DNA from: Chlamydiota bacterium
GTDB taxonomy: Bacteria > Chlamydiota > Chlamydiia > Chlamydiales > RGXB01
Length of the DNA stretch: 64,000 nucleotides
Assembly (NCBI GenBank): GCA_947494155.1
Contig: CANLTW010000005.1
Coordinates: forward strand, 16,793 to 80,792
Direction: 5' to 3'
Each line of letters begins with the position of its first letter. Position 1 is the first letter of the stretch. Shown one piece after another: positions 19,274 through 23,273 of this stretch. Under the pieces are notes generated by a model. That model did not search any database and was not told the DNA's origin. It worked only from the letters and a program-made list of their open reading frames with translations. The position numbers and the translations under genes are program-made.

Positions 19274-19987
19274 ATGCATAAGTACATCCAAAGAATTCTT
19301 ATAGCTTCCGTGATCGTAAGCCTTTTGCCGACTCTGCTTCGCGCCTTCCAAATACACGCCCCTATTCTGGAGTGGTTGTCCCTATCCAGCTTTGGGATCA
19401 AAGAGTGGAAATTATTTCAAATATTTACTTATCCTCTCCTTTTTTCGTTCGATATCCGCATGGACGCCCTTGCCCTTTTGGCCCCCCTTTTTATGGTATT
19501 CGTGGCGCGACTGGCCAACTTTTTTCTGGAGGTTGAAGGCCCAAGAAATCTTTTAAAGTTCTACCTGGGATCTTGTTTAGCCCCCTTTTTAGTCCTATTT
19601 GGAATCTTTTTGGCTACAGGACAAAATTTTATTTACTTTGGACCCCAGCCCCTATTTTATGCCCTGATCAGCTATAGTCTATTTGTATTGCCCGATTTAG
19701 AGCTTTTGTTCTTTATCTTTCCCATCCGCGCACGCAACTTTATATGGCTGGGTCTTGCACTCTCGCTCTTCTTCTCCATTGAATCGGGACAATATACCAC
19801 CCTGATCGCTACGGCAACCGGCGTTCTGTTCGGCTACCTCTACGGGTTGAAAACGCTCAAAAGGCACTCCCCCTTTACCGGCCTTAAGTTTCTCGAAAAA
19901 AGGCTCTTTCGCCTTTTCGAGTTTTTCAAAGCTCGCCAAAAATGTGTGATTGTCGATTTTAAAACGGGGCGCCAGATTCTAAAATAG
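19274..19987 (+). CDS. Rhomboid-like membrane protein, catalytic residues not evident
   Basis: WKLFQIFTYPL, multiple TM segments, FIFPIRAR; canonical GxSG and His are not seen. Confidence 0.55.
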   Translation: MHKYIQRILIASVIVSLLPTLLRAFQIHAPILEWLSLSSFGIKEWKLFQIFTYPLLFSFDIRMDALALLAPLFMVFVARLANFFLEVEGPRNLLKFYLGSCLAPFLVLFGIFLATGQNFIYFGPQPLFYALISYSLFVLPDLELLFFIFPIRARNFIWLGLALSLFFSIESGQYTTLIATATGVLFGYLYGLKTLKRHSPFTGLKFLEKRLFRLFEFFKARQKCVIVDFKTGRQILK

Positions 19988-20020
19988 CGACCCACAGGAT
20001 TATGTAAGGGACTGGTATCT

Positions 20021-20235
20021 ACCTAGCGCCAGGTTTAAAAGATTGCCCTTAAAACGATTGTGGGATCACTATAGCAGCCATCTAGCGCCAGGTTTTTGTA
20101 GGATTGGCCTTGAAAGAATTGTGGGATCACTATAGCAGCCATCTAGCGCCAGGTTTTTGTAGGATTGGCCTTGAAAGAATTGTGGGATCACTATAGCAGC
20201 CACCTAGCGCCGTGTTTTAAAAGATTGCTCTTTTA
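20021..20235. repeat. Intergenic ~61-bp tandem repeat, about 3.5 copies
   Basis: attgtgggatcactatagcagcca at 20057, 20118 and 20179; ctagcgcc at 20023, 20082, 20143 and 20204. Confidence 0.95.
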
Positions 20236-20261
20236 AGCCTTTTTACAAAAAAAGGTATGGC

Positions 20262-20501
20262 CTAACCTACGGGGGCCTCTTTAAGTAGGCTGCGCACTAA
20301 ACTGAGCATCCCTAACTGGCCGTGATACACCCCCTCTTCATAGAGAAATTCCTCATCTTTTGCCAGAGCAGGCCAGTCGAAGGGCTGGTTGAGCTCCTCT
20401 TCAGTAAACGGTTGCACCTTTTTTTGGCCGATCAACAGCAGTTTTTCTTTTTGATAAGAGATGGCCTTTTCTATCTCAAAAATAAGCTCACTTGTCTGCA
20501 T
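20262..20501 (-). CDS. Small conserved chlamydial hypothetical protein that follows tadA
   Basis: EELNQPFDWPAL...FLYEEGV resembles the small protein downstream of tadA in Chlamydia; overlaps the upstream ORF. Confidence 0.65.
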   Translation of the reverse strand: MQTSELIFEIEKAISYQKEKLLLIGQKKVQPFTEEELNQPFDWPALAKDEEFLYEEGVYHGQLGMLSLVRSLLKEAPVG

Positions 20502-20820
20502 AGTGCTCCCTTTCCAATTTGTGGACTAAAAACCTATCTAAAAAGCTTAGGTCCTGTAGATGTGTTTTTTTTAAAAAAATTACTTTATCCACTCGAGACA
20601 AAAGCAATAAACCCATCTCTTTTAAGGTGGGTTCTAAGACGCAATAAAGGGTGACGCCGTTTAGACGAAAATTTTTAAGCTCTTTATTCATAAAACACAC
20701 CGCTGAAAAAACCCCGTTTTTTCCCGAAAAAGAGCGAAATGTCTTCTCCTTAGTCAAAACCCAGACATGGTTCTCTTTTTCATGAAAATAGAGGGAAAAG
20801 AATTCCTCAATCGGGCTCAT
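20488..20820 (-). CDS. Catalytically dead TadA-like (deaminase fold) paralog
   Basis: LKNFRLNGVTLYCVLEPTLKEMGLLLLSRVDKVIF aligns with the TadA core but lacks HAE and PCxxC; ATGA overlap with tadA. Confidence 0.7.
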   Translation of the reverse strand: MSPIEEFFSLYFHEKENHVWVLTKEKTFRSFSGKNGVFSAVCFMNKELKNFRLNGVTLYCVLEPTLKEMGLLLLSRVDKVIFLKKTHLQDLSFLDRFLVHKLEREHYADK

Positions 20821-21257
20821 TTATTACGCCTTTGCTTAAAAAAACTTTGAATAATCTCTTTACACTCCTCTTGTAAGACAAATCTGGTAACCTCAATAGA
20901 AAGTTCTTTTTGTAAATCCACCACACTCCCCAAACATCCCCATCTGGGTTCGAATGTGCCGTAAACAATTTTTTTAACCCCCCTTTCCACAAGAGCCATC
21001 AGGCACATCAAGCAAGGCTCGTGCGTAACATACGCAACAGCATCTACCAAGATTTCCTTTTCTATATGAGATAGGGCAACCATCTCCGCATGGTAGGTTT
21101 GAGACCGGTTTTCTTCACAAGAATTACTTCCAATAGAGACGATCTCCCCCTGGTCAACGATCACCGCACCGATTGGAACCTCCCCTTTTTCAAAAGAATT
21201 CTTTGCAGCTTTTAGGGCTATTCTCATAAACCCCTCATCAATGGTTGCTTTATTCAC
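20817..21257 (-). CDS. tadA: tRNA adenosine(34) deaminase
   Basis: GEVPIGAVIV, HAEM, EPCLMC, C-terminal FFKQRR. Confidence 0.9.
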   Translation of the reverse strand: MNKATIDEGFMRIALKAAKNSFEKGEVPIGAVIVDQGEIVSIGSNSCEENRSQTYHAEMVALSHIEKEILVDAVAYVTHEPCLMCLMALVERGVKKIVYGTFEPRWGCLGSVVDLQKELSIEVTRFVLQEECKEIIQSFFKQRRNK

Positions 21258-21306
21258 TTTGATATGTTAAAATCCTTGAGATTAGTCTTGACGGAGATGA
21301 TTATAC

Positions 21307-21576
21307 ATGTCGCTAGATAAAGGCACAAAGCAAGAAGTCACAAAGAAGTTCCAATTGCATGAAAAAGACACCGGATCGGCCGATGTTCAGATTGCGATCT
21401 TGACTGAAAAAATTGCTGAGCTCAACGAACACCTCAAAATCTATACTAAAGATCACGCAACACGTTTAGCACTGATCAAAATGGTAGGACAACGCAGAAA
21501 ACTTCTCGACTACCTTAATACTACAGATACAGCGCGTTACACAAGCTTGATCACACGTCTCAAATTGAGAAAGTAG
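21307..21576 (+). CDS. rpsO: 30S ribosomal protein S15
   Basis: [25 protein letters not shown]. Confidence 0.98.
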
Positions 21577-21630: not shown

Positions 21631-22809
21631 TTGTCAGACGATCGGGTTCACGGGATCAACCCAGCCGGTGATGCGGCGCAAAAAATTCGCCAGCAACAAC
21701 AGGCTCAAGAAAATTCTGCTCTATTAGCTGAAGAAGTCATGATCGAGGCCTCCGATGAGGAGTTTCAGGAATGGTGTGAAACTGCCGCTTTTAACCCCTT
21801 AGCAGCGAATAATCGGGCTCAAGAGCTCGCAAAGCGACTACGGAATCCGAAGAAAGAGGAGTCGAGCGAGACCAAAGAAAAAGAGTTGGACCTACAGATC
21901 GTTGAAGAGATCTCGCAAGTAGCCGAAGAATTTTCGAGAAAAAACCCCGAATTCAATACCCGTGCTTTGATAGCACTTAGCCTAATCATATCGGCTGAAG
22001 ATTCCATAGAAACTATTTTAGAAAAATTATTTGCCAGCTATCCCGATGCCTATCTAGTGGACGAGGCTATCGAGTTTCTTTTAAGGATTACCAAAGAGAC
22101 AAATTCCCTTTTTGCCAAGCTTCTCGAAGCAAAAGCGCTTTTGCAAAAGAATTTTGAGCGGGAGATTCTCATTGGAAAAAACATTTCGCAAGAAGCGAGG
22201 GAGTTTTCTGAAAAGGGGCTGGGAAATGCCACAGGATTAAGAGATCTTTACAAGTGGGTCACTGGTACCGAGCAGGAACCTCTCAGGGTTTTTGAGGATT
22301 TGGTAAAAAAATTCCCCTATGAACAAATGAAGTCGGTACTGGCGTTTCTTTTGCATTCGTTAGGTTCTGATATAAAATCCAAAGGGCCGTCAATGGATCC
22401 TTTGGAGCTGCAAAAGCTTTTTGCCGAAACGCGCACGATGCAGGCGATTTTGGGAGTTTATCTGTTTTTCATGGGGCGCATGAATTTTCTTGAACGGCAA
22501 TTTGGGCGTTACGGCGAACCCAAACCTGAAGAGATCAACTTTGAAACTTTAGCCAAAATTTTTATCCAGTTACTTGCTGAAAAATATCCTAGTGTAGGGA
22601 GAGTGCTGCAACTTGCTGCGCAGCTGCAAATTAGTAATTCTCTCATTGCCCAAATGATTATTTTTTCTAATTACCGCGATTCTTTAAGGTATGTATCCCC
22701 CCGCCTTTTTAAAAACGAGAAACAGCGCCAGGATCTTTTGCAAGCACTCATAGAGTGTGTGAGCGAGCTTGACGAAAAAATTGAGGAGATGGACGAGGAG
22801 GAGGAATAA
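21631..22809 (+). CDS. copN: Type III secretion gatekeeper CopN/SctW
   Basis: FSRKNPEF, YPDAYLVDEAIEFL, IGKNI, LRDLY, DIKSKGPS, VSPRLF; followed by a chaperone and malQ as in Chlamydia. Confidence 0.88.
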   Translation: MSDDRVHGINPAGDAAQKIRQQQQAQENSALLAEEVMIEASDEEFQEWCETAAFNPLAANNRAQELAKRLRNPKKEESSETKEKELDLQIVEEISQVAEEFSRKNPEFNTRALIALSLIISAEDSIETILEKLFASYPDAYLVDEAIEFLLRITKETNSLFAKLLEAKALLQKNFEREILIGKNISQEAREFSEKGLGNATGLRDLYKWVTGTEQEPLRVFEDLVKKFPYEQMKSVLAFLLHSLGSDIKSKGPSMDPLELQKLFAETRTMQAILGVYLFFMGRMNFLERQFGRYGEPKPEEINFETLAKIFIQLLAEKYPSVGRVLQLAAQLQISNSLIAQMIIFSNYRDSLRYVSPRLFKNEKQRQDLLQALIECVSELDEKIEEMDEEEE

Positions 22810-23273
22810 TGAACTTTGCTCAACTGGTCGATGAGTTATCCGAGTTGCTTGGAATGGAGCTATCCATCGATAAAAATAGGGCCGTACGCTTTGTTTTGGA
22901 TCGCACAATAAAAATGCAATTAGAGTTCCACTCTTTCAAAGAGGCATTTTGCCTCATCATACCGCTTGAACAGCTCCACCAAGGGATGCGTAGGGAGGAG
23001 GTTTTAAAAGCTGCTTTAAAATCCAATCACACCTTTCGTCCTAAAGGGGGGCATTTTGGATACGTGGAAAAAAAAGGGTACCTTGTTCTCTTTAGTTATA
23101 TCCCCTTATCCATAGCAACAACTAAAATCGTTTTTGACGAGATGGTTCTTCTTTCGCAACAGGCTAGAGCCTGGCTTGAGGCCTTCAGTTCGGGACAAAG
23201 TGCCCCCCAAGGCGCTTTTGAAGAGAAAAATTTACCTCGTACTTCCCTTTTTAATGCGTTTGAAAAAAAATGA
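22809..23273 (+). CDS. scc1: Type III secretion class I chaperone (CesT/SycE family, Scc1-like)
   Basis: Small protein coupled to copN; VLKAALKSN, GHFGYV. Confidence 0.78.
   Translation: MNFAQLVDELSELLGMELSIDKNRAVRFVLDRTIKMQLEFHSFKEAFCLIIPLEQLHQGMRREEVLKAALKSNHTFRPKGGHFGYVEKKGYLVLFSYIPLSIATTKIVFDEMVLLSQQARAWLEAFSSGQSAPQGAFEEKNLPRTSLFNAFEKK

Follow-up and report, generated by a model that had tools for sequence, protein, structure and literature searches.

A TadA deaminase and a catalytically dead TadA paralog overlap head to tail in a genus of freshwater chlamydiae: a candidate asymmetric dimer

The window analyzed here is a 64,000-nucleotide stretch of DNA from a Chlamydiota bacterium (assembly GCA_947494155.1, 1.41 Mb and 97.6% complete; contig CANLTW010000005.1, positions 16,793 to 80,792 of the forward strand), and all positions below are those of this window. 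On its minus strand, three genes overlap head to tail. The first, tadA146 (20817..21257), encodes an active but trimmed tRNA adenosine(34) deaminase of 146 amino acids (aa). The second is an open reading frame (ORF) of 110 aa, ORF110 (20488..20820), whose product is a TadA paralog that is catalytically dead and has neither a zinc site nor the C-terminal helix. ORF79 (20262..20501), which closes the operon, encodes a small predicted helical-hairpin protein of 79 aa. The stop codon TGA of tadA146 and the start codon ATG of ORF110 share four bases (ATGA, 20817..20820), an overlap that suggests translational coupling, and the start of ORF79 overlaps the end of ORF110 by 14 bases. The initial annotation of the locus had proposed an ADAT2/ADAT3-like pair of deaminases; the intact HAE and PCLMC motifs of tadA and the ATGA overlap with the 110-aa frame, on which it built, are read directly in the sequence. 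ORF79, a third overlapping gene within the same interval, was absent from it.

By its sequence, TadA146 is a clear but fast-evolving TadA. It is the sole match of the genome to PF00383 (dCMP_cyt_deam_1; 4e-26, 91 bits at a cut-off of 25), and it also matches PF14437 (MafB19-deam; 5e-30, 105 bits) and the NCBIfam TadA model (NF008113; 5e-30, 104.4 bits, which is under the equivalog cut-off of 150 bits). Against a chlamydial TadA profile built from 12 ordinary TadAs, hhalign gives an E-value of 8e-44 at 38% identity. The HAE motif (21084-21092, minus strand) and the PCLMC motif (21003-21017, minus strand) are intact, and the C-terminal FFKQRR helix is kept, with F139, F140, and R144 invariant across 18 aligned TadAs. 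Relative to the 12 ordinary chlamydial TadAs there are two 4-residue deletions—one in the NWRL segment, where TadA146 reads IEKEILVD, and one in the HPxH loop before strand 5—and the ordinary LSR is replaced by ERG. In a genome search with chlamydial TadA, the TadA146 proteins score E-values of 1e-36 to 1e-41 versus 1e-52 to 1e-84 in most other families, with a few genomes scoring lower still. One further database protein (P0029, 155 aa) joins a TadA146-type N-terminal half to an unrelated C-terminal half after a conserved Gly; its contig has 833 bases, and a frameshift or a chimera in the gene call may be behind it.

For ORF110, the kinship with TadA postulated in the initial annotation is borne out by profile and fold comparison. 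The family alignment of ORF110 (A1; 11 rows, 9 of them distinct) matches the chlamydial TadA profile with an hhalign probability of 97.5% and an E-value of 7.9e-12 over 54 columns. Residues 45-98 of ORF110 are thereby aligned with residues 72-127 of TadA, placing NFRL on NWRL, TLY on TLY, EPTLKE on EPCMMC, and LSRV on LSRV. Among PDB sequences, 16 match at E<0.003, every one of them a TadA, a guanosine deaminase, or a deoxycytidine deaminase; Aquifex TadA leads with an E-value of 1.1e-4. The NCBIfam TadA model recognizes residues 46-83 weakly (7e-4, 19.4 bits, under the 150-bit cut-off), and a Pfam scan gave no match for ORF110, for ORF79, or for the 237-aa membrane ORF nearby. The best AlphaFold2 model of ORF110, calculated on A1, reaches a mean predicted local distance difference test score (pLDDT) of 80.8 and a predicted template modeling score (pTM) of 0.73. 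Its order of elements, a1-b1-b2-a2-b3-a3-b4-a4-b5, is that of the cytidine-deaminase type; the model stops after strand 5, and the C-terminal helix is gone. Foldseek relates it to 54 PDB chains at E<=0.001, with the TadA structure 1wwr best (E 7e-7, template modeling score 0.73), followed by 7cph, 2b3j, and 1z3a, and with ADAT2/3 chains lower.

The His and both Cys zinc ligands as well as the catalytic Glu are all lost from ORF110. The place of HAE is taken by N35-G36-V37 (20710-20718, in the register of the conserved part), at the start of predicted helix 2, and that of EPCxxC by EPTLKE (20617-20634). Both replacements had been noted before and are confirmed in the sequence, with the addition that the HAE place is variable within the family (N/D/E, G/P, V/I), while the PCxxC place reads P-T/S-L-K-E. 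Judged from these features, ORF110 is TadA-derived and catalytically dead—a derivative of the family rather than a functional member of it.

The two proteins have lost different parts of TadA, and the complementary retention of motifs described in the initial annotation is seen again in the alignments. ORF110 keeps NFRL (20662-20673, minus strand), TLY, LEP, and LSRV (LSR at 20593-20601, minus strand), while the IEKEILVD of TadA146 corresponds to a 4-residue deletion of NWRL. Within the ORF110 family, N50, F51, R52, L53, L74, S75, and R76 are invariant. Among the best 51 database matches to TadA146, the 4-residue xWRL segment is missing from 12 of the 12 proteins of its own clade and kept in 39 of the 39 other TadAs, 35 of them with Arg. 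The spacing R52-L74-R76 in ORF110 equals that of R70-M92-R94 in Staphylococcus aureus TadA, and the reported match to 2b3j (ORF110 41-82 on chain residues 62-103) fits a constant offset of 3. As far as the alignments tell, ORF110 keeps the counterparts of S. aureus Arg70, Met92, and Arg94, and TadA146 has lost them.

These residues belong to the RNA-binding apparatus of TadA. According to passages in the literature, Arg70 and Arg94 of S. aureus TadA form hydrogen bonds with the backbone of nucleotides 36-37 (PMC3711424), Met92 is given to the active-site pocket by the second protomer (PMC9643335), and a TadA loop that is kept in ADAT3 and not in ADAT2 touches nucleotides 38-40 (PMC9643335). 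Both TadA subunits are described there as contacting RNA (PMC7713142), and the C-terminal helix as essential for stem-loop binding and much shorter in ADAT3 (PMC8216470). Because of their place beside the Met92 counterpart and at the modeled interface, R52 and R76 of ORF110 might act in trans.

The interface itself comes from a prediction of the TadA146-ORF110 complex, for which an 18-row alignment of TadA146 and the 9 distinct rows of ORF110 were used in three runs alongside three controls. Each of the three runs gave an interaction prediction score from aligned errors (ipSAE) of 0.86, compared with 0.01 for the best control; of 157 solved complexes, 116 reach the mark applied to this score, as do 2 of 215 mismatched pairs. 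At least 98% of contacts are common to the runs, with a partner pLDDT of at least 89, and the model supports binding of TadA146 to ORF110, unless its score just mirrors the solved TadA dimers. Residues 47-54, 82-91, 105-106, and 112-113 of TadA146 are predicted to meet residues 38-51, 65-75, and 93-99 of ORF110, which is the helix-3 face of TadA, beside the zinc site of TadA146. On the side of ORF110, invariant positions are enriched at this interface (10 of 25 versus 14 of 85 other positions, Fisher p 0.016); the enrichment for TadA146 is not significant (p 0.18).

The model furthermore pairs the invariant E91 of TadA146—the ancestral Leu of LSR—with the invariant K67 of ORF110, where PCxMC ancestrally has its Met; at the mirror contact, M84-L74, both residues are still the ancestral ones. 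In either homodimer, the charge at the E91 or K67 site would oppose a hydrophobic residue twice, and this asymmetry would favor the mixed dimer. Position 83 of TadA146 (L,L,L,P,P,P in six species) covaries with its predicted contacts 73 (L,L,L,S,S,H) and 94 (L,L,L,W,W,W) of ORF110, which is weak evidence since it reflects a single split of the genus tree.

ORF110 is a live gene under purifying selection. It is intact in six of the seven genomes of one genus of uncultured freshwater chlamydiae: used as a query, it recovers unbroken counterparts (109-117 aa, 44-89% identical) from five of the six other genomes. The sixth (72% complete) yields no tadA match whatsoever; hence the locus was simply not assembled there. 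The order tadA146-ORF110-ORF79 and the 4-base overlap are kept in the loci of all five relatives. For the two unsaturated pairs of genomes, the ratio of nonsynonymous to synonymous substitution rates (dN/dS) of ORF110 is 0.097 (G000, the present genome, and G006) and 0.069 (G001 and G003). In the other 13 pairs, the proportion of nonsynonymous differences (pN) is 0.29-0.41 versus 0.67-0.97 for synonymous ones (pS). Where measurable, dN/dS is 0.02-0.21 for tadA146 and 0.10-0.28 for ORF79. The retention in relatives on which the initial annotation had staked its proposal is thus found, with dN/dS of 0.07-0.10 and the same gene order.

The family is narrowly distributed. A profile of A1, run over 151 genomes of the order, has full-length matches in six, all of this genus, and full-length ORF110 was not found in the 144 other genomes. 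In 116 of these, the single match of the profile is a part (residues 19-105) of their own ordinary tadA; the profile does not reach TadA146 in the genomes of this genus at E<=0.001. A comparison of the ORF110 family with 1.84 billion representative proteins gives 10 at E<=0.001, of which four are full-length members and the remainder long or repetitive proteins matched in short stretches. At E<=1e-10 there are five, namely the four members of 110-117 aa and a protein of 1104 aa matched in 16 short stretches. Longer or fused forms of ORF110 were not found, which by the search tool's own account is weak evidence.

On the substrate side, no change is apparent. ARAGORN finds 34 tRNAs in the genome, and tRNA-Arg(ACG) is the sole one with A34, the other Arg tRNAs having the anticodons CCT, TCG, and TCT. 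The altered substrate range envisaged in the initial annotation finds no support here: the anticodon arm of tRNA-Arg(ACG) is CATGG-CTACGAA-CCATG with an ordinary CUACGAA loop, and the gene is 100% identical in the seven genomes of the genus. In other families, the loop CTACGAA recurs in 19 of 21 tRNA-Arg(ACG) genes; of the remaining two, one reads CTACGGA and one is counted as unread. There is no sign of new substrates. In long ORFs, 36% of Arg codons are CGT or CGC, and Arg-ACG is the only tRNA with an anticodon expected to read them, so that the enzyme is needed. As a side observation, no tRNA-Arg with anticodon CCG was found in the present genome (contigs C2, C3, and C11), and CGG must therefore be read by Arg-UCG. 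If Arg-UCG reads more of the CGN codons, a relaxed dependence on inosine-34 might have allowed TadA to decay; a similar situation is discussed in a passage on Mollicutes (PMC3711424).

The surroundings of the operon give an idea of the ancestral arrangement. Upstream of tadA146 lies rpsO, in divergent orientation, and downstream follow the 237-aa membrane ORF, rpmE, and prfA. In 16 loci of other chlamydial families (L007-L020, L030, and L031), the tadA product has 142-177 aa where its start is clear, and NWRL-type and LSR-type motifs are always present. A homolog of ORF79 adjoins tadA in 10 of these 16 loci (L008, L009, L011, L014-L018, L030, and L031)—directly downstream and often overlapping in nine, on the opposite strand in L017. 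Since the ORF79 homolog thus stands beside an ordinary tadA elsewhere, the present genus has an extra deaminase-like gene between rpsO and ORF79, with ORF110 in the position next to ORF79 and TadA146 in the position next to rpsO. ORF110 is nearer to ordinary chlamydial TadA than to TadA146 (hhalign E 7.9e-12 and 5e-4, respectively). In a maximum likelihood (ML) tree of 31 TadA-like rows (6 active, 6 dead, 16 chlamydial, and 3 outgroup), the TadA146 and ORF110 groups both fall inside the chlamydial set, apart from the three outgroup TadAs (support 100/99), and the branching within the genus is congruent between them.

ORF79 itself belongs to a chlamydia-wide family of 71-101 aa with an invariant or near-invariant motif Q-P-x-D...L...F-x-Y-x-E-G...G. 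AlphaFold2 predicts two long helices (pLDDT 91.9), for which no match was found in Pfam (E<0.01), among PDB sequences (E<0.5), or with Foldseek (E<1), Atlas scores staying <0.9. The ORF79 product may be a factor associated with TadA. In another chlamydial genus (g20), short TadAs of 142-146 aa are encoded at L030:2245-2685 and L031:2354-2782. They lack everything between strands 4 and 5 and have kept NWRL/GWRL; an ORF79 homolog follows each directly, and there is no dead paralog.

We regard it as slightly favored, with a probability of roughly 0.55, that TadA146 and ORF110 pair as unlike subunits of one TadA dimer and that this asymmetric dimer forms inosine-34 in tRNA-Arg(ACG); this verdict on the pair is a computational one. 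TadA146 would provide the zinc ligands, the catalytic Glu, the adenine-binding Asn, and the C-terminal FFxxRR helix, acting on the adenosine in its own pocket. ORF110, which is itself non-catalytic, keeps the dimer face of TadA and, on this reading, the residues by which one protomer completes the RNA pocket of the other. These lent residues would be Arg52 (of NFRL), Arg76 (of LSR), and Leu74, corresponding to S. aureus Arg70, Arg94, and Met92—exactly those lost from TadA146. The ancestral homodimer had two composite active sites; a single one would remain, built from both proteins. A further-reaching version holds that this bacterium independently made the homodimeric TadA an obligate active/dead heterodimer by complementary loss alone—a case of constructive neutral evolution—with the substrate unchanged. 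TadA146 would then depend on the arginines and the Leu lent in trans, and the completion of its partner's RNA pocket would be all that ORF110 is there for. We hold this version tentatively, at somewhat less than even odds.

Several points weigh against a joint dimer. The good score of the complex model may only reflect likeness to the solved TadA homodimers and to ADAT2/3, and the fold of ORF110 is carried by its best model, the other four having a mean pLDDT of only 64-72. BLASTP between TadA146 and ORF110 is not significant (E 0.45), homology being visible by profiles only, and the ML tree neither joins TadA146 with ORF110 nor resolves their origin. The passages cited above assign only Met92 to the second protomer, and none of them does so for Arg70 or Arg94. 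The lost Arg of TadA146 might be replaced by its own R92, one residue away in ERG. The HPxH loop is also gone in 9 of the 39 other TadAs among the best 51 matches and in the TadAs of L030 and L031, with no known dead partner at the loci read; hence its loss alone does not call for a helper. Finally, not one zinc ligand is left in ORF110, while the zinc site of ADAT3 persists and, in the account of PMC7713142, appears to be needed for stability.

Other roles of ORF110 have to be considered beside that of an RNA-binding subunit. It could serve as a brake, binding TadA146 in place of a second active protomer and halving or tuning its activity, e.g., to limit off-target editing of mRNA. The binding evidence from the complex model would be the same, ORF110 has neither catalytic residues nor the C-terminal helix, and bacterial TadA is described as also editing mRNA (in the abstract of PMC11472039). 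However, a pure brake would have no need of the very residues missing from TadA146, namely the arginines that contact the RNA backbone and the Leu, and the ATGA coupling, which implies a roughly fixed stoichiometry, fits a subunit better than a regulator; we find a brake rather improbable. A role independent of TadA146—as a small RNA-binding protein or a partner of ORF79, with TadA146 an ordinary homodimer—would agree with the position of ORF110 next to a gene whose homologs accompany tadA in many chlamydial families, and with the occurrence of trimmed TadAs without a dead partner elsewhere. It would leave unexplained why the conserved positions of ORF110 cluster on the predicted TadA-type dimer face with the E91-K67 charge pair across it, and why the loss of xWRL is confined to the TadAs of this clade (12 of 12 versus 0 of 39), and it appears unlikely to us. 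That ORF110 is a decaying pseudogene or a chance ORF is barely credible: the lack of a Pfam match and the tiny size of the family (five proteins at E<=1e-10 among 1.84 billion) might suggest it, but the frame is intact at a near-constant 109-117 aa in six genomes down to 44-48% identity, with dN/dS of 0.07-0.10 and a confident fold prediction.

The origin of the pair is a separate question. Most economically, a chlamydial tadA would have been duplicated in tandem in the ancestor of the genus, and complementary loss—subfunctionalization, with no substrates gained—would have followed. Alternatively, and in agreement with either function, ORF110 could be the degraded ancestral tadA and TadA146 a foreign or far-diverged tadA that took over catalysis. 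Such a replacement would explain why ORF110 holds the place beside ORF79 that ordinary tadA holds in other families, why, over the shared part, it is more like ordinary chlamydial TadA than TadA146 is, and why TadA146 scores far lower against the chlamydial TadA profile than most other families do. On the other hand, TadA146 sits at the ancestral place beside rpsO, the tree puts it inside the chlamydial group (support 100/99, from only three outgroups), and a donor did not emerge. A search with one genome per species found none among eight loci, two of which belong to the same clade (97% and 68% identity) and the rest of which reach at most 52% identity over partial matches. The best matches outside its own clade are 45-49% identical over most of the length, no better than ordinary TadAs at large. 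With the ORF110 group on a saturated stem of length 10, a long-branch warning from the tree program, and the two groups not resolved, the tree is silent on duplication versus replacement. We consider replacement unlikely, though a history to be reckoned with.

Three known systems invite comparison with the proposed asymmetric dimer. With the bacterial TadA homodimer (1wwr, 1z3a, and 2b3j), it shares the fold of both proteins, the CUACGAA loop of tRNA-Arg(ACG), and the predicted helix 3/helix 3 face, and TadA146 keeps HAE, PCxxC, the adenine-binding Asn, and the C-terminal FFxxRR helix. It differs in being made of two gene products and in having no more than one active site where the homodimer has two: ORF110 is devoid of the zinc site, the Glu, and the C-terminal helix, and TadA146 of xWRL, the LSR arginine, and the HPxH loop. 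Trimmed solitary TadAs, as in Mycoplasma capricolum (6l2l) and in g20 (L030 and L031), are likewise short, have lost loops or changed RNA-contact residues, and belong to reduced genomes; a passage in PMC3711424 gives Arg70 and Arg94 as replaced in the M. capricolum enzyme. No dead paralog is known alongside them, and they keep the xWRL segment or its place, whereas the residues lost from TadA146 persist in a second, coupled protein.

The third system is ADAT2/ADAT3 (Tad2p/Tad3p). They too combine an active with an inactive TadA-derived paralog, the C-terminal helix of the inactive one is shortened or absent, and the inactive subunit keeps RNA-contact elements of TadA lost from the active one, as a passage on the ADAT3 loop in PMC9643335 has it. 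However, ADAT3 is described as keeping His, Cys, and Cys and a zinc capped by its own C terminus, with only the Glu changed to Val (passages in PMC8216470 and PMC7713142), while ORF110 has no ligand left. ADAT3 moreover bears a large N-terminal tRNA-binding domain, as opposed to the 110-aa trimmed deaminase core of ORF110, ADAT edits seven or eight tRNAs rather than a single A34 tRNA, and the present pair would have originated independently, within one chlamydial genus. By its defining features—no zinc site, no N-terminal domain, one substrate—ORF110 is not of the ADAT3 kind; it may still work like one. The proposal of an ADAT2/ADAT3-like pair is borne out in part, by the active/dead combination, the complementary retention, the selection, and a complex model that passes; binding and mutual dependence are presumptive, and a change of substrate finds no support.

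In the literature, bacterial TadA is described as a homodimer, and the heterodimer is presented as an invention of eukaryotes linked to the expansion of inosine tRNAs (passages in PMC8266599, PMC8216470, and PMC7713142), and searching of full-text literature turned up no bacterial active/dead TadA pair. If TadA146 and ORF110 bind and depend on each other, they would make a small and tractable natural experiment of 146 plus 110 aa and one tRNA. Such a pair would bear on whether heterodimerization needs an adaptive driver or whether a duplication followed by complementary decay suffices, substrates being added at a later stage. Which residues of TadA truly act in trans would be revealed as well, and since adenine base editors are built on TadA, this matters in practice too.

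The locus is also met outside assembled genomes. DNA near-identical to window positions 20200-21300 is contained in 14 freshwater or lake metagenome runs (0.83-1.00 of sampled words), which carry 10 study codes and one of which is possibly the source; the host organism seems to be widespread in lakes. Contigs from four RNA libraries of four studies (0-3 differences) cover 20173-20337 in the region of ORF79, 20554-20692 and 20606-20808 in ORF110, and 20959-21179 in tadA, leaving the operon stretches 20342-20512, 20855-20911, and 21197-21253 without a contig. Their depth is 2.5-7 for parts of the operon versus 17-41 for rpsO. These contigs mark presence in RNA libraries, which is not proof of transcription, and they do not show strand, level, or co-transcription; they may stem in part from carried-over DNA. 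A scan for promoters and terminators found no minus-strand site upstream of tadA146, its site counts being at shuffle level, and an Rfam scan of 19900-21400 gave no match.

Minor features of the neighborhood complete the picture. A 61-bp tandem repeat of 3.2 copies (91% matches) at 20023-20218, likewise without Rfam match, takes up the spacer in which the 237-aa membrane ORF and ORF79 converge; two of its 42-base cores are identical (0 expected by chance). On the other side, two plus-strand ORFs of 392 and 154 aa with a one-base overlap (21631-23273) come after rpsO in this genus. In seven of the 16 loci of other families (L007, L010, L012, L015, L018, L030, and L031) rpsO is followed by pnp, and in L016 a second rpsO-like ORF lies between rpsO and pnp.

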